Virus record (IMG/VR): IMGVR_UViG_3300018405_000012
Length of the DNA: 64,000 bases
Reading direction: 5' to 3' (one strand)
From: an uncultured virus (IMG/VR IMGVR_UViG_3300018405_000012)
Lineage: Duplodnaviria > Heunggongvirae > Uroviricota > Caudoviricetes
Shown: in pieces, positions 1-55,116 of the stretch
Position numbering within the stretch: the stretch's first letter is position 1
How the letters are laid out: every line of letters starts with the position of its first letter
Program-made: the position numbers and the translations under genes
The notes under the pieces: model-generated
Databases searched by the model: none
What the model was told of the DNA's origin: nothing
The model's input: the letters and a program-made list of their open reading frames with translations, nothing else

Positions 1-389
1 CCGAACTCATTGTGTTCTTCGAACTTGTCAGAAACATCCGAGGGCACAACGAGGCCTGCTCGGTCAATGAAGCTGCGCAGCGCTGGGTAGGTGACGATGG
101 TGTAGATTTCCTTGGTGATGGCTTCAATTTCGCCACGGACCAGGAACGAGGAACGGATTTCCTCTGACATCAAAAGTTCGGCAGAGCGCACGTACAGATC
201 CCACAAGCTGGTCTGGTCGGCCTCAGGTAGGGTGGCGATGAACTCGTTGGTCTCCTTGAACAAGATTTCGCGGTTGATGATAGCAGCCGAGTAGTAACTT
301 CCAGCTGACAGCATGAGAGTTTTGTCGCCGTGCTCCAAACGAAGCATGGAGATCCCTTTGCTGGACATGTCCTGTACATTGATCTGCAT
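1..389 (-). CDS. Partial gene running off the window start; probable non-virion RNAP subunit (phiKZ gp68-like)
   Basis: Read by hand: GAGG RBS, ATG at 389, MQINVQDMSSKGISMLRLEHGDK..., open to the window edge. Identity inferred from position after the SbcD / gp66-like / gp67-like genes. Confidence 0.55.
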   Translation of the reverse strand, partial: MQINVQDMSSKGISMLRLEHGDKTLMLSAGSYYSAAIINREILFKETNEFIATLPEADQTSLWDLYVRSAELLMSEEIRSSFLVRGEIEAITKEIYTIVTYPALRSFIDRAGLVVPSDVSDKFEEHNEF

Positions 390-4561: not shown

Positions 4562-4998
4562 AGTGAAGCTCCTTGTACATTAAAGGTATCAGCCGGAATG
4601 AAAGGCCGGCCGTTGTTTTGTAAATCGATGATGCTACGGATACGCGAGTCCGTGGACGTTACCACGTGAACAATGTCAATGCTCTTGTCTCCGTCTCGTA
4701 AGATAACACTGATCTGTAAATCAATACTGTTCCCTTTCGTGACAGCGTTGACGTTCAGATCCACAGCATCAAACTGACGCTCAAAATAAGACTGTAAGAC
4801 GCGGTAAGTCTCGTTCTGTAGCTCAATTGGATTGTTACCAAACTGACTGATGATGGCCCCTAGACTGACCAGGGACCCACGGTACATGTCCGACTGAGAC
4901 TTCTGCGTGATATAGAAGTTGGCCATGGCCTCGTCGGCTTTGATGGTCAGGTCAGAAGCGAAGCCTGCTGGACCTAGGACGGGAATCACACGGGACAT
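4558..4998 (-). CDS. Conserved hypothetical protein
   Basis: Likely start MSRVIPVLG at 4998 with GGAG RBS. Confidence 0.75.
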   Translation of the reverse strand: MSRVIPVLGPAGFASDLTIKADEAMANFYITQKSQSDMYRGSLVSLGAIISQFGNNPIELQNETYRVLQSYFERQFDAVDLNVNAVTKGNSIDLQISVILRDGDKSIDIVHVVTSTDSRIRSIIDLQNNGRPFIPADTFNVQGASL

Positions 4999-5046
4999 GG
5001 GGAAGACTCCGACAAAGAAAAAGGATTGCGGTGGCAGTAACGGAAG

Positions 5047-5082
5047 GGGTGACACACATACCAATCGGCAGGTGTGTCACCC
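5047..5082. terminator. Intergenic 11-bp stem-loop
   Basis: GGGTGACACAC...GTGTGTCACCC. Confidence 0.5.
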
Positions 5083-5088
5083 TATCAG

Positions 5089-5712
5089 TCAAAGCGAGCT
5101 GTTATCTGGACAGCTCGGGTCGTCCAAACCCTCATCGAGGAAGGTGTTGAAATTGGCCCACATTGAGTCACGGATGGTGACCTGGTCGGCAAACGTCAAC
5201 TGAGTCCGTCCATCAGAGTCATACAGATGCAAGTACTCGACGAACTTGGAGTGGCCGTGCTCATCGAATTGCAGCAGTCCGTTAGTGACTTCCTGGTAAT
5301 CGGGGTCATCTTCGCCGATCCGGCCACGATTTTCGTGCTTGAGGAAACTCCTCCAGCCATTCATCATGTCCTTCTCAAACAACTGCTTTGCCCGTGGGTT
5401 GGCCATGAGCCAGCGAGCCTGTTCCGGGCCGGCTTGCTGGAATTGACCAATCTTCGACATTGGGCGGATGGAATCCTTGTCGAAGAGGTGGGTGACTTTA
5501 CGTTTCAGTGCATCGACCTTGCGCTCGATACGATCAAAGTCAAACGACTCGAATCGCTCAACGGCGCGGTTATACAGGTCACTGCCCATCAACCCGAAGG
5601 AACGTGCTGTGTTCTCCAGTCGGCTTCGAATGGCAGCCCGGTCCTCTGACTTCGGCAGCCCGTAGTGCATCGACCGAAATTCCGACTCGTCCGCATACAT
5701 TGCAATAGCCAT
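5089..5712 (-). CDS. Conserved hypothetical protein (phiKZ gp59-like position)
   Basis: 207-aa ORF directly downstream of the nvRNAP beta' gene. Confidence 0.75.
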   Translation of the reverse strand: MAIAMYADESEFRSMHYGLPKSEDRAAIRSRLENTARSFGLMGSDLYNRAVERFESFDFDRIERKVDALKRKVTHLFDKDSIRPMSKIGQFQQAGPEQARWLMANPRAKQLFEKDMMNGWRSFLKHENRGRIGEDDPDYQEVTNGLLQFDEHGHSKFVEYLHLYDSDGRTQLTFADQVTIRDSMWANFNTFLDEGLDDPSCPDNSSL

Positions 5713-5766
5713 GTTGAGACTTAGCCCCCTTTGTGAGAATGGGTGAGTAGGATGATAAGTTGCTCC

Positions 5767-5952
5767 TTATCGTGAAACCTGGTCACCTTCGATCAGCCAG
5801 TTCGTCATGCTGGCAATCAGTGGTGGCGGCAAGGTGGTGTTACGGGAAACTGTGAAGGGTTTGTTCAGATCCATGACGCCTGTGACTGGGTCGAATCGAC
5901 TCAGTGCTTTGGCCGTCTGCTTATCCAGTGGCAATTCGCCCCATAATGCATC
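5767..5952 (-). CDS. nvRNAP beta' N-terminal subunit, exon 3 (DALWGELPLDK...)
   Basis: Supplies the last D of NADFDGD; follows the terminal G at 5953. Confidence 0.88.
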   Translation of the reverse strand, partial: DALWGELPLDKQTAKALSRFDPVTGVMDLNKPFTVSRNTTLPPPLIASMTNWLIEGDQVSR

Positions 5953-6267
5953 CGGGGACACTCATGGGATTTCCCCATGACCTGACTATATCTTTACCTG
6001 TAAAACCAGGTACCTTCTGTTTCGGTCAATTGCCAGACCTACTCTACTCGGTTCGTCTCCCGACGCCTTTCGATAGTCGATGAACCGTACCCCTGGCTTG
6101 CTTCCCAGCAATCGGTAGGGTCTTGGCTGCGGATTGTGCAATCTTCATCTTTATTACCGTACCCTCGGAGTTACCCTCGGCCACTTCAGTGTTTCCACTG
6201 TAGCTTGGTAGATGAAGCTCTCAGCACGTTCCCGTCAATTTAAAAGGTTTAACGACGGCAATGCTTT
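5953..6267 (-). ncRNA. Group I intron without ORF (315 nt), second intron of nvRNAP beta'
   Basis: P1 CGACGGU/GCCGUCG with U-G pair, P10 GCAUU/GAUGC, R motif GUUCAUCGACUA, S motif AAGAUAUAGUC, terminal G. Confidence 0.9.
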
Positions 6268-6282
6268 ACCGTCGAAATCGGC
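6268..6282 (-). CDS. nvRNAP beta' 15-nt micro-exon encoding ADFDG
   Basis: GCC GAT TTC GAC GGT between two group I cores; completes the catalytic NADFDGD. Confidence 0.88.
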
Positions 6283-6671
6283 CGTATGTTCAGGTGAGAC
6301 GCAACGTCACCCCGCAGCATTACCTGCATAGCCCTGGCAATTACGCCAGGATACCAGACTATATCATCATCTCATGACTGAGATGCCTCCCGTTTCGACC
6401 CCGCTTGGTGGCCTACTCTACTCCCCGTAGGTTTCGATAGTCGTTGATCACATCCCATACGCTTCGGTTAATGAATTACACATTAACGGTTAGGCCCTTT
6501 CCCTGCGCGATAGGGACTTCGAGGCTGATTGACCCATTGTATCATCTACCTACTTTTCAAACCGTCACGAATGCCGTTTCCAGCTGCGTTGTGGTAAGGT
6601 AGCTTTAGCGTCTTCCAGCAGTTAGAGAGGTTCTTCGACTAGAGTCGCCCCTAGAAGGAACAATGTGACTT
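6283..6671 (-). ncRNA. Group I intron without ORF (389 nt), first intron of nvRNAP beta'
   Basis: 5' exon ends GAAU pairing with GUUC; AACUGCUGGAA, UCAACGACUA and GAUAUAGUC core motifs; terminal G at 6283. Confidence 0.88.
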
Positions 6672-7940
6672 ATTCTTATCGATCAGGTTCAGAGGACTCA
6701 TGCTGACAGTGTTATCTGTCGGGTCAGTCTTGAAGTGATCGATCTGGTTGTAGCCTATGGAACCCCTGGTCAAGGTGGGGTTCCTCGCGAACAGCGTCGG
6801 AATGGTCCCACCTGGGGATTCGTCCAGCAGTTCGTTCAGCAGGTTGTGCAAGTCCGGGTGGTAGCGCAACGTGTTCTCGTAGATCAGGGCATTCATTTCG
6901 TTGGGTGTGTAGCCCCGCGCCATGAGCTTGTTTTGCAGGTGGACCTTGAACAACAAGATACTTAGCGACCACGGCATCTCCAGGCCATCTTGACGATGTG
7001 GCTTTTGCCGGGAGGTGATGACCGAACGGAATCCCCAGTATGGCCGGGTACCATAGATCAGCTTACGCATGATCCCAGGCTTCTTAAAGATGACCTCAGA
7101 CTCGAACGACTTATAGTACTCGCTGAAGTTATTGAGGGCATTGACCATCCGCGCTTCTTTGTTAGCCTGTGGCAGCTTGGGCTGGTTCTCCGCGTTTTCG
7201 CGGTTGTCGATGCCGATGAGGATGTGTGCCGCATCGATGGCAGGGACCATCTTTGGGTCGGACACGATCCGGTTATTGGACGACTCGCGGATAAAGCCAA
7301 GGCGAGTAGGGAATGGCAGGTGTTCGGAGAACGTCCGGTCGAAATTCTCCTGAAGGAAGCGCATGATCTTGCGGCGTTTCCGGGCGCTGGCAGACGGACC
7401 AATCAGTGACGCCTTGGCCAGGGCAACCAGGATGGCTTCATAGTTCTCGATGAAGTGGTTGTAGCCGCGTGGGATCTCGAGCCGCTCAAGCTTACGCATC
7501 TTGTCGGCAGCCAATGGAGCAGCCGGTTGATAACGGGGATTGGTCAGGTACTCGAGGATGTTGAAATTAGAATGGCTGAGGTTCTTTGACAGAATCCGCC
7601 ACACCGTAAGGTTAATGAATGCTTTAATGCCCGCTGGTGCTTTGAGCCAGAGGATAGACTCCAGAGGCTTCTCGGTAACCGGGACAACCAGCGATAAGCA
7701 GTTATTGCAACGGATGTTGTAATTGTCCATGCCGACAATGGAACCGCAGTCACAGCTGGCGGTGTTGTTCAGCGAATCGCCGTCAAGACTGGCATAGATC
7801 AGGTTATTAAGCTCAAGACGATCGGCTTCCAGATCGATGTTGAACTCGTTCATGAGGATCGCAGGATGCGCCTGATGACGGAAGATGTCGTCGTAGTTGA
7901 CCACACTCAGGTAAATGCCATTGCGTTCTTTTATGGCCAT
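6672..7940 (-). CDS. Non-virion RNA polymerase beta' N-terminal subunit (phiKZ gp55-like), exon 1; spliced product about 489 aa
   Basis: Zn finger SCDCG...CNNC, FRSVIT, RNPTL, then ...SPLNLIDKN before the intron; adjacent to chimallin. Confidence 0.92.
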
Positions 7941-8037: not shown

Positions 8038-9948
8038 TTAGAACGACGAACCGCGACCGAAGCCGTTGCTCACATGGCTGCGCAGGCTGCGCTGATCGCC
8101 ATTAACCACACGACGGCTGTTCAGCAGACCGTGGGTCAGATCGCCACCACGGAAGTCGCGAATGCGAGTGTTGCCACGCAGACGACGAGCACCGAAGGTG
8201 AAGTGAGCTTGACGCTGATCGATGTTGATCTTGCAATCGGCCACCGACAGTGCCAGCGCTTCGATGAATTGCGGGTTGATGAAGGCCAGGTCGACGTAGC
8301 GGGAGAACTTGACGTTCTGCTGCAGGGCGCCGGTCAGCTGGTCGAACTGCTCGGATACGCGGATTTCCACGTCCAGGTCAGTGCGGTCGATCACGTCCTG
8401 ATAACGCAGGGCGCTTTCACCACCATCGTTCGGGTTCTGCGCCATCCAACGGAGCAGGTCCCATTCACGCAGATCGCGCTCGTTGCCCTTCTCGTCCAGC
8501 CAGGTACCGGTCAGGTAACGGGCACCGGACATCACGAGTGGGTTTTCTACGCCCAGCTCTTGAGCACGACGGCTGAAGTTGCCCGAAGTCAGGCGGTCAG
8601 CGTAGTCGTACAGACGGCGAACAGCTTCGCGGTTGGCCGAAGTGTCGTCTGCAGCATCCAGCAGCAGGCTGGTCAGCCAGCTGTTGTCGCCACCTTCTTC
8701 CAGCTCGATTGCGTATACCAGGTTTTCATCGACCAGACTGAAGAAGTACTGACCCCACTTCTCTTCGTCCAGCGAACCACGGTTGTCGAACACGATCGGT
8801 TGCTGATCTTCATCCGGGCCGAGAATGTTCAGCAGACCGCTGTCGCGAGCATCGATCTCACCACGGGCAACTTCACCCGGCAGGAAAGTACGGGCCCACG
8901 CTTGGTTCTTGGAGATCACCGAGGACGATGCCAGTGCCAGGAGCAGGAGCTCCGGGGTGATGGCGTTGCCGCTGGTGTCCATGCGGTTGATGATGTACGT
9001 CGGGGTGAAGTACGGCTGATCGCGACGACGGTCACGAGCCCAACGCTCTTCGTTCTGCGGCGGGGTGTACACGATGTTCATGTAACCACCCAGGTTGGCC
9101 AGAGGCACGGTGACGTTCTGGTCGCCCTTGCGAACGGTACCTGCAACCGATACCGCGATGTCACTGCGGCGAGGCAGGCCGTCGGCGGATACGCTTTCAC
9201 GACCGGACATGTCGACGTTGATCTCGAGGGTGGACTGCTTGTTGAGCCACTCGAGGCTGAAGAACATGTCGTTGCGGTACAGCTCGTTGTACATCGAGGA
9301 CAGAGCCGCCTGCGCGTAGAAGATGACCTGACGCGCTTCGGTAGTTTCCGGATCGTTGAAGTCGACCTTGCGGTCAACCACACGCCAGCCGCCACGGATC
9401 ACTTCGACGGAACGACGGGACTGGTCGAATGCCTTCTTGACGATGTCGTCGATGAGGGCGAGGTACGACTCGGTCACGTAATCCGAAGCGATGATCGGCA
9501 GCGGGTAGGTGCGATGGTTGATCTCGACGTTGCGGATCGGGGTTTCGTCGCTCAGCGTGCCTTCCAGCACCAGCGAGTGAACCAGTACCTTGGTAACGCC
9601 CTGATCTTCGATCGGGTACGCCAGGATCACCGAGGAGATGCTGACGTTGTTTTCCTGACCGTCCAGACCCAGCACTTGGATCTTGGTCAGGTCGATGGCA
9701 GCGGCACCGGCTACTTGACGCTCGGCCGAGAACCAGAACTTAGCGGCCTTGATGGCGTTGACCAGGGATTCACCGCTGGTGCGACGGGACATCGGGCTGC
9801 CGAGCAGACGGTTGATATCCAGCAGACCAGCGTTCAGGACCGGGTTTTCCTGAGGGGTCGGACGGGACGAGCGGCTGTTCGCCTGTTCGCGGGACGGCTC
9901 CTGCGCCTGCGAGTTGTTGCTGTTGTCGTGGCTATCTTGAACTGCCAT
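8038..9948 (-). CDS. chmA: Chimallin, major phage nuclear shell protein
   Basis: About 636 aa, strong codon bias, AAGGAG RBS, canonical position directly upstream of nvRNAP beta'. Confidence 0.88.
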   Translation of the reverse strand: MAVQDSHDNSNNSQAQEPSREQANSRSSRPTPQENPVLNAGLLDINRLLGSPMSRRTSGESLVNAIKAAKFWFSAERQVAGAAAIDLTKIQVLGLDGQENNVSISSVILAYPIEDQGVTKVLVHSLVLEGTLSDETPIRNVEINHRTYPLPIIASDYVTESYLALIDDIVKKAFDQSRRSVEVIRGGWRVVDRKVDFNDPETTEARQVIFYAQAALSSMYNELYRNDMFFSLEWLNKQSTLEINVDMSGRESVSADGLPRRSDIAVSVAGTVRKGDQNVTVPLANLGGYMNIVYTPPQNEERWARDRRRDQPYFTPTYIINRMDTSGNAITPELLLLALASSSVISKNQAWARTFLPGEVARGEIDARDSGLLNILGPDEDQQPIVFDNRGSLDEEKWGQYFFSLVDENLVYAIELEEGGDNSWLTSLLLDAADDTSANREAVRRLYDYADRLTSGNFSRRAQELGVENPLVMSGARYLTGTWLDEKGNERDLREWDLLRWMAQNPNDGGESALRYQDVIDRTDLDVEIRVSEQFDQLTGALQQNVKFSRYVDLAFINPQFIEALALSVADCKINIDQRQAHFTFGARRLRGNTRIRDFRGGDLTHGLLNSRRVVNGDQRSLRSHVSNGFGRGSSF

Positions 9949-10015
9949 GGTGTACTCCTTGGAGAGATTTCGTTGTTTACTAGGCCTAGTGAACATCGTA
10001 GTGATATTCACGTGG

Positions 10016-48845: not shown

Positions 48846-49970
48846 TTATTTACCGTCCATCCACATCGCGGCAGCGTTTTCACCAATCGCTGTCAAGACC
48901 GAGATGGTCATGCCAGACAACAGTGCGGACAATACAATCCGGTCCATGACCGACTTGGCACCGAAGACTGCGTTGACTGTCCGTCCCGATTCGGTCTCAT
49001 TGATCCCCGACAACCGGTGACCGACAACACTCTTCATCTGGGAGGCAAATACCAACTTGTCCCCTACCGACATTCCTTCACGGTGCGTGATGTACACCTT
49101 GATTGCCATGTGATCGAGTTCGAGACCGTTGCCATCAATACGCAATGACTGATCCACTTGCCCACTGGCTGCCGGTTTACCCAGCCGCTTGGCCACCTTA
49201 CGGCGACGCTTGTCGTGAGCCAACGCCAACTCCAAAAGCGAATCCGACATGTCGTCCGGGTCACCATGGTAGAAGACTTCGATCTTCGAGACTTCACCTA
49301 CAGCGCCTGCCGAAGGTGTTGCCGATGACATTAGGCGCAAGGTATCCAGATCGTCGTCTGAGAACAAGCCGGATTCGGCTGTTACAGCGTCTTCGATCGT
49401 ACATAGGATAGTTGCGATGTCCGTGTGGTCGCCTTCCTTGACCAAGTTACGGATTGTCTGGTCAAACCGAACAACAATGGTCTTGACCTTGGTGACTTCC
49501 GATCCCAGTTGCTCAGCCAACCAATCATCAATGGCCGAGGAGTCCTCGAGCGTATAGGACGCTTCCATCAAAGCTGTCCGGGCAATCACCCCTGCCATCC
49601 ACTGTACCTGCTTGGGATGGAACCGGCTGGGCTTGAAGAACCCGGCGTTGTACTTGAGGATGTCGCCCTTCTCGATCTTGTCGCCCAGCTTCAGGGTTGT
49701 AGCCTGTCGCTGCGGATAGACCGAACCGGCCGAGATGCCATACTGCGTGGTCAGATCAACGTGTTCAAACGTCCCGTCCTCATACGCCACCACCAGATGC
49801 TCGTCACTCTGCTCAACCACTTCACCTGCTTTAGAAGCAGGCACGGCGAAGATCTCATCGACCCGATGGGCCAGAATGTGATCGTAACCGGTGCTGATAG
49901 GTGACTCACGGTAACCCTGTGCAGCGATTACGTGAGACTGCTGGATGCCGATGAAGTTGACGCGTTTTGG
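48846..49970 (-). CDS. Virion RNAP beta subunit (phiKZ gp178-like), exon 3 (PKRVNFIGIQQSH...)
   Basis: EDS and GDKL...QMKSV beta motifs; frame open back to the terminal G at 49971. Confidence 0.9.
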   Translation of the reverse strand, partial: PKRVNFIGIQQSHVIAAQGYRESPISTGYDHILAHRVDEIFAVPASKAGEVVEQSDEHLVVAYEDGTFEHVDLTTQYGISAGSVYPQRQATTLKLGDKIEKGDILKYNAGFFKPSRFHPKQVQWMAGVIARTALMEASYTLEDSSAIDDWLAEQLGSEVTKVKTIVVRFDQTIRNLVKEGDHTDIATILCTIEDAVTAESGLFSDDDLDTLRLMSSATPSAGAVGEVSKIEVFYHGDPDDMSDSLLELALAHDKRRRKVAKRLGKPAASGQVDQSLRIDGNGLELDHMAIKVYITHREGMSVGDKLVFASQMKSVVGHRLSGINETESGRTVNAVFGAKSVMDRIVLSALLSGMTISVLTAIGENAAAMWMDGK

Positions 49971-51356
49971 CGATGTCTTCGGTTAGGTTCGTTAAGCCTA
50001 ACCCGCACCATTACGTGCAGCTCTGGGCTTTCCCCAGATGTCGAGACTATATCTTTACCCTCACTGTAGGGTAGTCCACATTTCCACTCACTTGAGTGTA
50101 CAGGCTGACGAGGCCTTAGTCGTTGAACCCGATCACCGTATCCGAAGACTTAGGTGCTTGGCTGCTGATTACCCAATCCTCACACTTTTCTAACCATGAC
50201 CGTCTGATCTTTCGATCTCCGTTTTGGTAGTGAGGCTCTAAGGATGTCCCAGCAATTAGAGGACGCTCAGTTAACCATTACTGATTAACCGGACCATTGT
50301 TACGGGCTGCATAGTCCGAATAGTACATGAATCTATATCCATCCCCATACGCCCGATCTGGGCGCTTGAGTCTGTAATCAAGAAGAGTTGGCGAGATATC
50401 GAATTTCCTAGCCGCATCTGTACATTGAGGAAATATCTCAATTGACTCACACGTGTCGTCAATTACTACGACAGACCTTTTCTTAGTGTACAAATCCAAT
50501 TCCAAGTAGGGGTCTTCTACGTGTCGCCATGGTTTAGGATCACTAGCCAATTTTACCTGAATGTATCCAGGGAGTACTGGCTGGTTTTCTTGTTTTAACC
50601 ATAGTGTCAACTTCGATTGATTGGTTCCTAGGAGCATAGCGAGCGTTTTAAGCTTCGAGAATGACTTTATTTTCCCTGTTAGAAGTTCTCTCACTAAAAC
50701 TACTTTGCCATTGCGGTCCGGGAATGTCTTCCTTAATTCCTTTCCAGGAATGAACCAATCTTCTTCATCATGGAGACGTTTATACTGCCGTCCATCGGGA
50801 AATACCTTCTGTCCCTTAGACATTATCCTCCACAGTACAGCGTCCTTTGTCAAACCTAGATTAAGTGCGCATTTGATAGCACTTGGAAACTCAATAACAA
50901 TACCAGTTACCGAGTCCCTGACAAGGACGGGAACGCATTTACTGGTCAATTGGTTATAACCAGCGTGTTCAGCGTTACCTGTATAAGTCTCCCACTCGAG
51001 ATTATCAAGGAAATCATCGCCCTTGATGCAGTTCTTGTGGTTGACCACTAGGTTATCTATTGGGTATCCTGGGTGTTTGAAGACGAAGCACATGAGTCTG
51101 TGTCGACCCCAAGTTAACACCTTTCCATTGTCCCCAATTAATCGAAAGTTAAAGTAACCCTTCGGATTTCGACTTCCTTGCAGATATTTCCCATCTGCCC
51201 GCCTAATTACTTCCCCAGTTATGGAAATCCCATAACGACTATATCCAGAAATTTCATAGAAACCTGGATAGTCCTCTAACTCGATTGGATTCATGTGCAA
51301 CTCCTATCATGACATACAATAGGAGTACTATATTCATTACTATACAGCAAACATTA
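49971..51356 (-). mobile_element. Group I intron (1386 nt) carrying an HNH homing endonuclease near its 5' end
   Basis: Joins ...SDRDD|PKRVNF in frame; AAUUGCUGGGA, CAGCAGCC, GUUCAACGACUA and AAGAUAUAGUC core motifs at about 50040-50260. Confidence 0.92.
50278..51294 (-). CDS. Intron-encoded HNH homing endonuclease (NUMOD4-like N-terminus, HNH, repeated helical DNA-binding modules)
   Basis: HRL...VNHKN...DNLEW...N..HA; AT-richer than its flanks; ATG 51294 with AGGAG RBS. Confidence 0.9.
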   Translation of the reverse strand: MNPIELEDYPGFYEISGYSRYGISITGEVIRRADGKYLQGSRNPKGYFNFRLIGDNGKVLTWGRHRLMCFVFKHPGYPIDNLVVNHKNCIKGDDFLDNLEWETYTGNAEHAGYNQLTSKCVPVLVRDSVTGIVIEFPSAIKCALNLGLTKDAVLWRIMSKGQKVFPDGRQYKRLHDEEDWFIPGKELRKTFPDRNGKVVLVRELLTGKIKSFSKLKTLAMLLGTNQSKLTLWLKQENQPVLPGYIQVKLASDPKPWRHVEDPYLELDLYTKKRSVVVIDDTCESIEIFPQCTDAARKFDISPTLLDYRLKRPDRAYGDGYRFMYYSDYAARNNGPVNQ

Positions 51357-52814
51357 ATCGTCTCGGTCAGAGAACGGTGAGATCAAAGCTGATGTCGACA
51401 GCAGGTTAGCCGAACCATCCTTTTCCTTGTCGTACTTGCGAACGGTACCGCGAATGCTGGTGATGTTGGCATTCGGTGACATGTAGGTGATGACCGCCAC
51501 GTCCCCCGAGTCCACTGTATCCCCAGAGATGAAGCCAATATCACTTTCCTTGTACAGGCGAGATTCTGCGGTCATCGAGCGGCTGCTCCGTCCACCGCGA
51601 CCCCCGTACGTGATGATCTCCTTTTGCTTGAGGTTCTGAATCGGGTTGATGTCATCGACCAGTGCCGACGCCGGGTCTTGGACGATGTTGGTCCAGACTT
51701 CATGGGGCTTCATGGTGACTTGAGAGTTGCTCGATGCACTGCGCGAGTTATACACCCGAATCGAACGCACCAGTTCCCCATAGACTGCTCCCGGAATCCG
51801 CTCATAGCCCTTGGCTCGTTCGAGACCATCGATCAGACCTTCCGCCCCTTCCACAACAGTTGGGACATAACGGTTGATCAGCAGCTCGACAGCCCGTAGC
51901 AACAATGGCACATACTCGGTGGGTTCTTTCATCCACTCGAGTACGCCCTTGGTGATCGGATCGACCCACATGGCGTTCATCAGGTCCAGTTCACGCAAAT
52001 ACCGCAACCCGATGCCGTTGGCGTCCAATACCGTGAAGTACACATCCTTGGCATTGAAGCTATGGCGACTGAAGCTCTTGATCTGCTTGTGATAGTGCAC
52101 GAACCCGGCGAAAATCATACTGACTTTGTCGTCGGTCTTGTCGAGCACCACCGTTTCATCCAGGAACTTCAACGCGTACTCATCCGGCCCCATCTGCAGC
52201 CTAGTTCCAACAGGGACCGTCCGGAAGCTGGCTTTGGTCAGTTCAAGCAACCGATCAAACCCGACCAGATACGCCAGTGCGATTCCAACCGGCATGGTTT
52301 TACCGAAGATGCTGATTTCAGCCATCCCCACCGGGGCCTTTTCACGGTTCAGGTTAAACAGCTCTTCGACATGACCCAGCTCTTCAACCTGTTCATTACC
52401 CTTAACCAGGTAGAAAGCATTGTCACGGTCCACCAGTACATAACCGTTGTCGCGCTTACCGCAGACCACCATCCCAGGATGCTTGTTCTCCAGCGCTTCG
52501 ACCTGTACCATGTCCAATACACGGCTGCGGTGGCGGTTCTTGTAATCGAACCAGTACTGTCCATTCGACTCAAAGGACATCACACGGCTGCCGATGATGG
52601 TGTAAATCGTGGGCAGGTCAAGTCCGAAGTCCGCTACGTCAGCGACCTTTACATTGTTGATGTCGTTATCGGTCTTATCCAGACCCTTGGCGACAATCTG
52701 CTTACCGATCCAGGCATCGTAGTTGAACACAGAGCGCTGAGAGCGTTCGATGAACAACTTACTGTAGTAGCTGGTCAGTGCTACACGGGTGGGGTTAACT
52801 TTTCTGATGGGAAT
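51357..52814 (-). CDS. Virion RNAP beta subunit, exon 2 (IPIRKV...SDRDD)
   Basis: GYERI.G, INPI and GRGGRS motifs. Confidence 0.9.
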
Positions 52815-53278
52815 CAACCCCATCTGGTTGGACCATATCTTCATCCTCAGCACTCTATTGAGTTGTAGGATGCCTACCGTTTCCCCATTCTTAATGAACA
52901 GGTACTCTACTCGCTTTAAAGACTCCTAAGAGCCACCACCTGGCTTTATGCAGATGTCATTAGTCCGTATGTACGGATGTAGCTTTCGATGGCCTCTGAG
53001 CACATCCCATGGCCTTGTAGGGCGTTAGGGACTTCGCTGCGTCGGTTGCGCCTATCGTTGACGTTTTTACCATGCTCATCGCTTCCATTACTGGGATGAG
53101 TGTTACTCTCAGTTTCCTGGAGCAAGTGGTAGCCAATGACCTTAACGGCGTTTTCCCGCAATTAGGTAGGTTTGCTAGTGACGCATTACTGCATCACGCG
53201 AACATTCGTTTCCGGTGTAATGATTTTACTGGGGTCGAACACATGTCCCCGTGCTTTAACGATTACTGGAAATTATTT
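52815..53278 (-). ncRNA. Group I intron without ORF (464 nt) in virion RNAP beta
   Basis: Joins KAD|IPIRK; P1 GCGGAU/GUUCGC, P10 GAAU/AUUC, AAUUGCGGGAA, UCAGAGGCCA and AAGAUAUGGUCC; terminal G. Confidence 0.88.
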
Positions 53279-55087
53279 ATCCGCTTTCTGAGTCCGCAAC
53301 CGATACCGTTGACCGTTGGAGATGTACACCCCGCGCTTGTCAACGACCGGCACCCGGAACGAGATGGTCGAAGGTTTTCCCGTTACAGGAGTCAACTGGA
53401 TCTTGTGGATCTCATAGTGACTGACCGCATCCTGCACCACCTCTACCTTATACCCAGTAACTGCTACACCGGCTTTCTGAACGGACATCACCGCATTGAG
53501 AATGTCCTTTTTCATCACCCGTTCGATGTACTGACTGTCCATCTGCTCCACGGTGGATTGCAACATGGATTCGTCACGCACCGCGTCAGTCTTAGGGTAG
53601 TTGTCAGCTGCCGAGAGGATTTGATCTTCATCGGTGATGACCAGCGACTCTTCCACAGTCTTCCCTGTGTTCCACGGATCGGGCATGGTCTTGTACGACT
53701 CGGCCAGACGCTGCATCCGACGGTACTGGGCAGCGGTATACAGGTCCTTGTCCACCAATTCATCGAGCTTAGCCTGAATGCTGCTAGTCAGGGTGTGTGC
53801 GATGTTGCTGGTACCGACCACTTGACCGACGCTTTCGCGTTTATCCTGGTCAGCCTCAATCACCAGCTCCCCGTCCTCATCGGTGAGTACAGTGTCGGTA
53901 TTGTCGGTCGCTGGCTCATCGAGTTCTTCAGCCAGTTCTTCTTCCACCTCGTCGATGGTCAGTTCGGGAGTGGTTGACTCCTCCAGCAGTCGGGCTTCTT
54001 CGTCAGCTTCTTCCTTGGCCTGAGCCGCTTCTTCAGGGTCCACCTCGCCTGCTTCAGGGGATTCCTCCAGCAAATCCGGATCAACTTCGGCCTGCACTGT
54101 ACTGGTCTGAGCAACAACCCGTGTCAACATCTTCAGGAAGCGCAACTGGATGATCTTGGGGTCAATGCCAGCCGCAGCTTCCATCGAAACCTGCATGTCC
54201 TCATCCAGCGTCATGTCACCATTGTTCTCCATCGAGACATACCGATCAAAGGTCTCCTCGAAGTCAAACTCAGGGTCCGGTTCACCGATGGTCAGAGATT
54301 CCATAGAGACACCGGCACCTGCTTTACGCCAGCTATTGAGCAAGCCCAAGTTGATGGTCAGGAACCCAGTCTCGCGGCGAATAAGCAGTTCGATCTCATG
54401 TAGGCGCGATTCGTCCAACTTAGCCATTGGCGCCTTGGCACGGTGTTCGCCCAACCACATCCACAGATCCAGCAGATCCAGACGCTCACGTGAGTTGAAT
54501 ACTTTCATCAACATCGGCGTCATGTTGCGCTCTGCTTTACGCAGATCCGACAGGGCTGGCAGGCTCTGAGGGACATCCATCACGACCAGATGATGACGTT
54601 CGTGAGGAGTCTTCAGCTGATTGATCCGCTCCCATTGCGTGGAACGAATGTTCTTCCAGTACCACCACCGACTCAGAGCCGAACGCTGATACTTGTACAT
54701 GTGTCCGATCATGGCGTAGTTGACCACCACCATGTTGGTCAGCTCTTTGGTGCTACCGATGTAATCGCGCATCGGTCGGATGAACATGTGCTCACGCCGA
54801 TACTGCTGAATCATCGGACCAATCAGCTTATAGGTCGGCCGGGGATTGCCGTCTTTAACCAACAGATCAGATACATGATCAATGAAGACCAACCGCTGGG
54901 CCGCCTTGATGGCAGGGTCGTCATTGGCCGGGCCGAGTTCAGTCTCGGTGACGGGCATGTAGTGGTAGACCGTACCACGCGGTAGCGCAAAGCGACTGAT
55001 CGGCCTGACCTTGGGGTTTTCCAGACCACCCAAGCGTCGAATACCGAACAGCTTTTCATAGCGCTCGTAAAGAAACATTACAGCCAT
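53279..55087 (-). CDS. Virion RNAP beta subunit, exon 1; spliced product about 1463 aa
   Basis: AGGAG RBS before ATG 55087; ends ...SNGQRYRLRTQKAD; acidic linker with SME sites. Confidence 0.88.
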
Positions 55088-55116
55088 GTTAAATCTCCTG
55101 GCGCTCACATATCGAC

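Follow-up and report, generated by a model that had tools for sequence, protein, structure and literature searches.

A 15-nucleotide micro-exon between two group I introns at the catalytic motif of a jumbo-phage RNA polymerase gene

How can a phage make a working RNA polymerase when the codons of its catalytic loop do not stand together in the DNA? This question is raised by a stretch of 64,000 nucleotides (nt) from an uncultured virus (IMG/VR record IMGVR_UViG_3300018405_000012), here called the window, which belongs to a nucleus-forming, chimallin-encoding, phiKZ-like jumbo phage related to Pseudomonas phage pPa_SNUABM_DT01 (DT01). On its minus strand the window carries a gene that, judged by its homologues, codes for the N-terminal half of β′ in the non-virion RNA polymerase (nvRNAP) and corresponds to gp55 of phiKZ. 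At the codons of the NADFDGD motif this gene is divided into a first exon, a micro-exon of 15 nt and a third exon. We consider it highly probable that two independent group I introns, neither of which contains an open reading frame (ORF), interrupt the motif codons and that the exons join to an intact subunit of 489 amino acids (aa). The structural side of this reading, which had been put forward in an initial annotation made from the letters alone, is supported by Rfam models, by a gap-free alignment, by an intron-free allele and by what appears to be a circular RNA of the first intron.

Structure of the interrupted gene

The identity of the gene is indicated by both of its larger parts. Exon 1 matches PHROG 2987 ('RNA polymerase beta subunit') at E 2.7e-116 over profile positions 2-410 of 478, and exon 3 takes up the same profile at positions 422-476 of 478 (E 6.3e-07); Pfam gave no family match for either exon. 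An intron-free near-twin of the gene (L005) matches bacterial β′ chains as well as, at E 1.5e-68, the phiKZ nvRNAP chain 7ogp_A. This PDB chain is named PHIKZ055 + PHIKZ056.1 and is continuous through NADFDGD. In DT01, the closest phage in GenBank (81% identity), the gene is one uninterrupted coding sequence (CDS) of 487 codons. The joined window product aligns to it gaplessly across DKNADFDGDALWGELPLD, with identity in 397 of the 489 columns. No GenBank phage matched the region by megablast.

When the sequence was re-read, the exon and intron coordinates proposed in the initial annotation were all found to be correct on the minus strand (Table 1). Both introns are of phase 0 and the length of each exon is divisible by three; joined, the exons form a single frame of 489 codons with one terminal stop, in which NADFDGD is restored as had been proposed. 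Of the three catalytic aspartates, the micro-exon holds the first two and exon 3 opens with the third. Left unspliced, the frame of exon 1 runs through six codons of intron A and then meets a stop. The predicted in-frame skipping of the micro-exon was likewise borne out on paper, as a script that joined only exons 1 and 3 by their coordinates gave a product of 484 codons; NADFDGD is recovered only if the micro-exon is included.

Both intervening sequences match the full Rfam group I model RF00028 (model positions 1-253, minus strand) above its gathering score of 50 bits. Intron A matches at 6335-6681 with 52.3 bits (E 2e-10) and intron B at 5962-6277 with 61.1 bits (E 4.6e-13), and the two account for half of the four gathering-level matches in the 64-kb window. 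The conserved core strands P4, P6, P7 and J8/7 are visible in both alignments, and the core elements P, Q, R and S align in both introns. Each intron ends with a G (G6283 and G5953), the borders being set by gap-free alignment to intron-free alleles. In the minimum free energy (MFE) fold of the micro-exon and the intron start, P1 of intron B comprises nine base pairs (bp), of which seven are provided by micro-exon positions 6274-6268, with U6268 opposite G6259. P1 of intron A has 6 bp in its MFE fold, with U6672 opposite G6661; it rests on position and not on stability. A P10 pairing for intron A was sought by eye and none was found. The group I hallmarks named in the initial annotation (U-G at the 5′ sites, terminal G), the model matches that it anticipated on both sides of 6268-6282 and its count of seven micro-exon bases in P1 of the second intron thus all withstood the analysis.

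The ORF list contains no ORF of at least 60 aa in either intron, and none of the three shorter intron ORFs (46-52 aa) matches a Pfam family at E up to 1, so that the description of both introns as ORF-less holds; neither of them carries a homing endonuclease. Compared with each other by blastn, introns A and B do not match at E 1e-3 and are therefore not a tandem duplication. In a blastn search of both introns against GenBank phages, only core matches of 110-135 nt to introns of unrelated phages were obtained, none of which reached 80% of the query.

The intron-free near-twin L005 allows the surroundings of the insertion sites to be compared letter by letter. Its identity to the window reaches 98.6% for the first 1040 nt of exon 1, with about 97.5% across flanks of 8 kb, but drops to 82.1% for the final 229 nt of exon 1 and to 87.8% for the first 156 nt of exon 3. 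Mismatches per 100 nt number 13 at 6800-6899 and 25 at 6700-6799 on the upstream side, 11 at 5900-5999 and 8 at 5800-5899 on the downstream side, and about 2 elsewhere. The resulting tracts of divergence are about 180 nt long on the upstream side of the introns and 96 nt long on the downstream side. In its form this is the pattern of gene conversion around a homing site, and the window and L005 would thus represent an intron-plus and an intron-minus allele with co-converted flanks in close relatives. None of the sampled alleles is the donor of the divergent flanks, nor is any of them closer to the window tracts than L005. Either a gain of the cassette by the window phage or a loss by L005 would fit this comparison.

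Table 1. Parts of the interrupted nvRNAP gene, adjoining genes and parts of a second split polymerase gene in the window
Feature	Position	Strand	Description
Exon 1, nvRNAP β′ N-terminal gene	6672..7940	minus	1269 nt, 423 codons; ATG at 7940, end ...LIDKN at T6672
Intron A, site A (N/A codon boundary)	6283..6671	minus	389 nt, ORF-less group I, terminal G6283
Micro-exon ADFDG	6268..6282	minus	15 nt, GCCGATTTCGACGGT
Intron B, site B (G/D codon boundary)	5953..6267	minus	315 nt, ORF-less group I, terminal G5953
Exon 3	5767..5952	minus	186 nt, 61 codons + stop; begins DALWGEL
Upstream divergence tract vs L005	6672..6852	minus	probable co-conversion tract; mismatches from CDS nt 1089
Downstream divergence tract vs L005	5857..5952	minus	last mismatch at CDS nt 1380, none from there to the stop
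Upstream neighbour	8041..10011	minus	nuclear shell protein (chimallin), PHROG 4795
Downstream neighbour	5092..5712	minus	PHROG 3254, function unknown, E 2e-33
Second split RNA polymerase gene	48849..55108	minus	PHROG 3148, three exons
RF00028 match in the second gene	52804..53218		55.3 bits, ORF-less
RF00028 match in the second gene	50021..50323		72.1 bits
ORF in the second intron of the second gene	50324..51300	minus	325 aa, PHROG 59 HNH endonuclease, E 6.4e-24

Intron RNA and a model for splicing

RNA of intron A is present in sequencing run X4, which is on record as metatranscriptomic RNA; each of the runs listed held at most 0.20 of the sampled words. X4 contains a contig of 415 nt with a depth of 73.8 that covers 6283-6641 and 6612-6667. 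This contig goes back by 385 positions and joins 6283 to 6667, that is, it links intron A's terminal G with base five of the intron, with the first four intron bases lost, and the depth over the exons in X4 is 0. We read the length of 415 as 385 + 30, a circle assembled with words of 31 letters, the word size being assumed from the description of the run index. Circles formed through attack of the terminal G near the 5′ end of its intron are a usual by-product of group I splicing. The presumed circular RNA would fix the 3′ end of intron A independently of the alignments and argues for an active ribozyme.

Pieces from other runs were not accepted as evidence. The one contig that bridges the introns, from run X12, spans 5952 to 6673; the 16 other letters that stand in between spell codons of the L005 type, and it is therefore an intron-free DNA allele and not spliced RNA. 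Pieces from runs X1 and X2 were set aside as short core matches or as parts of relatives' exons.

Several observations weigh against the splicing of both introns. Junctions of exon 1, micro-exon and exon 3 with the window's own codons, which the initial annotation had expected among the reads, were not found in the runs examined, and nothing was found there of intron B RNA. The evidence from X4 is an assembled contig with six differences from the window, and RNA libraries can contain DNA. Intron A lies only 2.3 bits above the Rfam threshold, its alignment includes several non-standard pairs, and the energy of its P1 hairpin is no better than that of shuffled sequences (z 0.17). For the intron that phiKZ carries at site A, a long-read transcriptome study reports no evidence of splicing (PMC10914365).

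We nevertheless infer that both introns are removed in the window phage, presumably as follows. Each ribozyme would fold on the pre-mRNA, and its guide sequence would pair with the final bases of the preceding exon, in intron A with 4 nt of exon 1 and in intron B with 7 of the 15 bases of the micro-exon. Cleavage would take place after the U opposite the G, and the flanking exons would then be joined past the terminal G. The product, consisting of exon 1, micro-exon and exon 3, would encode the 489-aa subunit with an intact Mg-binding catalytic loop. Either order of splicing is workable on paper because the two P1 helices share no bases.

Interruptions of the motif in related phages

The survey of the same motif drew on IMG/VR (two scans), on metagenomes (one scan) and on three GenBank records. 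This yielded 41 informative genes after one truncated contig (L011) had been dropped; the rows are not all independent, and phiKZ and Goslar were chosen deliberately. Within this set the motif is uninterrupted in 27 genes and interrupted in 14, and two or three introns occur in five genes. Taken by itself, the second IMG/VR scan gave 10 interrupted loci among 33 informative ones. Counted in nt from the end of the N codon, insertions lie at position 0 (site A; the window, L015, L014, phiKZ and L046), +6 (site C; L013, L016, L035 and L046), +7 (L034), +8 (Goslar), +15 (site B; the window, L015, L014, L010, L012 and L042), +18 (site D; L037 and L046) and, tentatively, +21 (Goslar), which amounts to up to seven positions within 21 nt. 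Support at the Rfam gathering level was obtained for positions 0, +6, +7, +15 and +18. Thirteen of 13 alleles, with the truncated L011 left out, give a full-length frame with NAD[FY]DGD when spliced at the inferred borders. L034, L035, L042, L046 and Goslar also give a full-length frame by inferred splicing, with N[AC]D[FY]DGD.

The double arrangement is not confined to the window. L015, a separate IMG/VR contig of 51 kb from a different assembly, is identical across the region and has the same two introns. The same layout of site A and site B is found in L014, which is 71% identical in exon 1. Its site-A intron (351 nt, 4770-5120) is ORF-less and homologous to intron A of the window, its micro-exon consists of the same 15 nt with one synonymous change, and its site-B intron (1042 nt, 5136-6177) carries a 187-aa HNH_3/NUMOD1 ORF. 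The site-A and site-B introns of L014 share 117 nt at 85% identity, unlike the window pair, a hint that adjacent introns have exchanged sequence. When IMG/VR was scanned with a pattern for the micro-exon flanked by intron-type sequence, 19 matches were obtained; two of these had intron motifs (L014 and L015) and 17 were unrelated. A longer pattern gave no match in metagenome contigs.

Other relatives show single or denser interruptions. The site-B intron stands alone in L010 and L012, with HNH ORFs of 330-334 aa, and in L042, where it is ORF-less. HNH_3 ORFs above the Pfam cut-off are found at the motif in L010, L012 and L014 (site B) and in L013 and L016 (site C). A distant relative, L046, appears to be a triple-intron version of the arrangement: three tandem ORF-less, group I-like introns of 467, 481 and 444 nt at sites A, C and D (5246-6655) would leave AD on an exon of 6 nt and FDGD on one of 12 nt; the spliced frame has 482 aa with NADFDGD. 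Only the first of these introns passes the gathering score (65.5 bits); the second, taken alone, reaches 32.6 bits (E 1.4e-06) and the third 21.8 bits (E 0.0086). At site D the exon end GGAGAT of L037 is complementary to GTCTCC in the following intron, and GGTGAT of L046 to GTCACC; this co-variation is a compensatory change in the predicted P1. The Goslar gene (L054; MK327938, 167000-171200, minus strand 2655-848 of that piece) reads as two introns around an exon of 13 nt (1215-1203). Its frame of 497 aa with NADFDGDA needs both this exon and a second, ORF-less intron of 355 nt, with Rfam scores of 46.9 bits for intron 1 and a weak 16.7 bits (E 0.067) for intron 2. In GenBank, two 'hypothetical protein' CDSs enclose a single Intron_gpI non-coding RNA and an HNH/NUMOD1 CDS there.

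In a tree of exon 1 proteins with 38 rows, near-identical genes differ in their intron state: the window and L032 from L018, L022 from L028, and L031 from L024 and L025. At a tree distance of 0.002, phiKZ (L017, 9184-10540) carries an intron at site A with the 334-aa gp56 and L037 (5261-6784) one at site D with an ORF of 386 aa. The three double-intron rows form one supported clade of four with L018 (95/100). Such near-identical pairs that differ only in intron state are material on phage competition driven by endonucleases, which has been demonstrated once, for PhiPA3 gp210, and on a possible protection by ORF-less introns. This one catalytic loop further offers a natural series from intron-free genes through introns at A only, at B only, at C and at D to double and triple arrangements.

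The nearest known system is phiKZ itself, for which the initial annotation had rightly named a single HNH-bearing intron in this gene; the intron of gp55/gp56/gp56.1 lies exactly at site A. The gene is the same, stands beside the chimallin gene and is entered at the same point as by intron A. The phiKZ intron matches RF00028 at 75.6 bits, and its 3′ terminal stretch is similar to that of intron A. It differs in that phiKZ has one intron with a 334-aa HNH gene and no micro-exon, whereas the window combines an ORF-less intron at site A with a second intron 15 nt downstream. The phiKZ proteins gp56, gp72 and gp179 were predicted as intron endonucleases in 2002 (PMC10914365), and gp55 is listed among the intron-bearing RNA polymerase genes (PMC11512511). 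With phages that hold only the site-A intron (phiKZ) or only the site-B intron (L010, L012 and L042), the proposal of stacked invasions fits the survey well.

Comparable clusters are known from other genes. Weglewska et al. (NAR 2025, PMC11878797) describe genes of Bastillevirinae with two or three group I introns, mostly of subgroup IA, many of which were shown to splice in vivo. These differ from the window in being genes for DNA polymerase, terminase and nucleotide metabolism in Bacillus phages, and an exon this small is not mentioned in the sections consulted (PMC11878797). In organelles, for example in placozoan cox1, group I introns are reported to enclose very short exons, which are spliced; these belong to eukaryotic mitochondrial genes (PMC5436844). 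Micro-exons in the β′ catalytic motif of jumbo phages were not found described in the full-text literature, a search from which subscription papers and supplements were left out. The initial annotation likewise knew of no description. The arrangement is not singular, as it recurs in the 71%-identical L014 and denser versions exist. Three group I introns and exon skipping in a single gene, orf142 of phage Twort, are said to have been described by Landthaler and Shub in PNAS in 1999. The likeness lies in clustered, ORF-less and self-splicing introns of group I within one phage gene with an internal exon that can be skipped; the phage family and the gene are different, and the polymerase catalytic loop is not concerned.

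Origin of the arrangement and other split genes

The window element follows a known habit of such phages, in a tight form with two introns. The two introns probably represent different lineages that home to positions 15 nt apart. Because no endonuclease gene is present in them, while introns of relatives carry HNH genes at these places, the window introns may be regarded as passengers, moved by recombination or by an endonuclease acting in trans. A broader and tentative picture, which we think rather unlikely to be right as it stands, would take the seven or eight codons at the motif as a contested landing strip. Several lineages of group I introns and HNH enzymes would each hold their own position, the number of positions within 21 nt being five or more, perhaps seven. 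Stacks of two or three introns with exons of 6-15 nt would build up since each position taken removes a target of rivals in co-infection. The phage nucleus, by keeping ribosomes off nascent RNA, would allow such crowded ORF-less ribozymes to fold and to splice reliably.

Three other explanations have to be weighed, of which the first would add to the double-intron reading and not replace it. ORF-less introns could be retained since they split the HNH target sites at A, B and C and so guard an essential gene from nicking in co-infection. The HNH_3 ORFs in introns of five relatives (L010, L012, L013, L014 and L016) and the HNH gene gp56 at site A of phiKZ would supply the attackers, and the near-identical phages of unlike intron state point to ongoing gain and loss. 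Harm to phiKZ in co-infection is described for gp210 of PhiPA3, an HNH enzyme from an intron of the virion RNA polymerase (vRNAP) gene (PMC11620839). Against such a guard, the endonuclease-bearing site-B intron of L014 coexists with a site-A intron 15 nt off without an obvious mutual block, and 27 of the 41 informative genes do without any intron at the motif; we regard this role as possible and on balance doubtful. A regulatory role, in which the efficiency of splicing or the skipping of the micro-exon tunes the nvRNAP, appears much less probable. Skipping would be in frame, the resulting 484-codon subunit without two catalytic aspartates could poison assembly, exon skipping is said to be known from the tandem introns of Twort, and one Bastillevirinae gene is reported to be alternatively spliced (PMC11878797). 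However, the skipped product was not seen in the runs examined, and the introns are dispensable because the close relative L005 and the cultured DT01 manage without any intron. Introns are also scattered over the tree, as would sooner be expected from selfish gain and loss than from a control device under conservation.

The least probable explanation, which we would accept only with great reluctance, is that the introns have decayed and no longer splice and that the split gene is a pseudogene. It could draw on the lack of an endonuclease ORF in both introns, on the score of intron A near the Rfam threshold and on the spliced junction not being found in the runs examined. Yet the exon frames are intact, the 15-nt exon is letter-perfect for ADFDG in three contigs, both introns retain alignable P, Q, R and S elements, and the putative circular intron-A RNA at its depth of 73.8 points to an active ribozyme. 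Moreover, an essential polymerase has its catalytic loop here, and the ORF and PHROG scans of the window revealed no other copy of the gene. Two spliced introns around a functional micro-exon thus remain our preferred reading. Exons of 6 to 15 nt probe the minimum length that can serve both P1 of one intron and the 3′ exon of another. For annotation, gene callers give a 429-aa β′ fragment without the catalytic loop and an orphan of 64 aa, GenBank does likewise for phiKZ, and surveys of jumbo-phage polymerases that are blind to micro-exons will misjudge such genes.

The order of shell protein gene and nvRNAP gene matches the annotation of gp54 and gp55 in phiKZ, and the downstream gene keeps its position in DT01.

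A second polymerase gene in the window is split as well. It belongs to a β-like family of 1424 profile positions (PHROG 3148), with three exons that cover profile positions 1-574, 570-1050 and 1095-1420 and are separated by two further group I introns, and it probably encodes the vRNAP. The ORF in its second intron has weak Pfam matches to HNH_3 and to the I-TevI DNA-binding domain. In PhiPA3, an intron of the vRNAP β gene is located after two conserved aspartates, and its enzyme gp210 nicks phiKZ gp178 and confers a competitive edge, as described by Birkholz et al. (Science 2024, PMC11620839). That system resembles introns A and B in that a group I intron sits at conserved aspartates in an RNA polymerase gene of a chimallivirus; it differs in the polymerase (virion), in the subunit (β) and in having a single intron with an endonuclease, which both window introns lack. 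The window vRNAP exon that precedes the HNH intron ends with ...DRDD, which fits the gp210 site after two conserved aspartates as described there.

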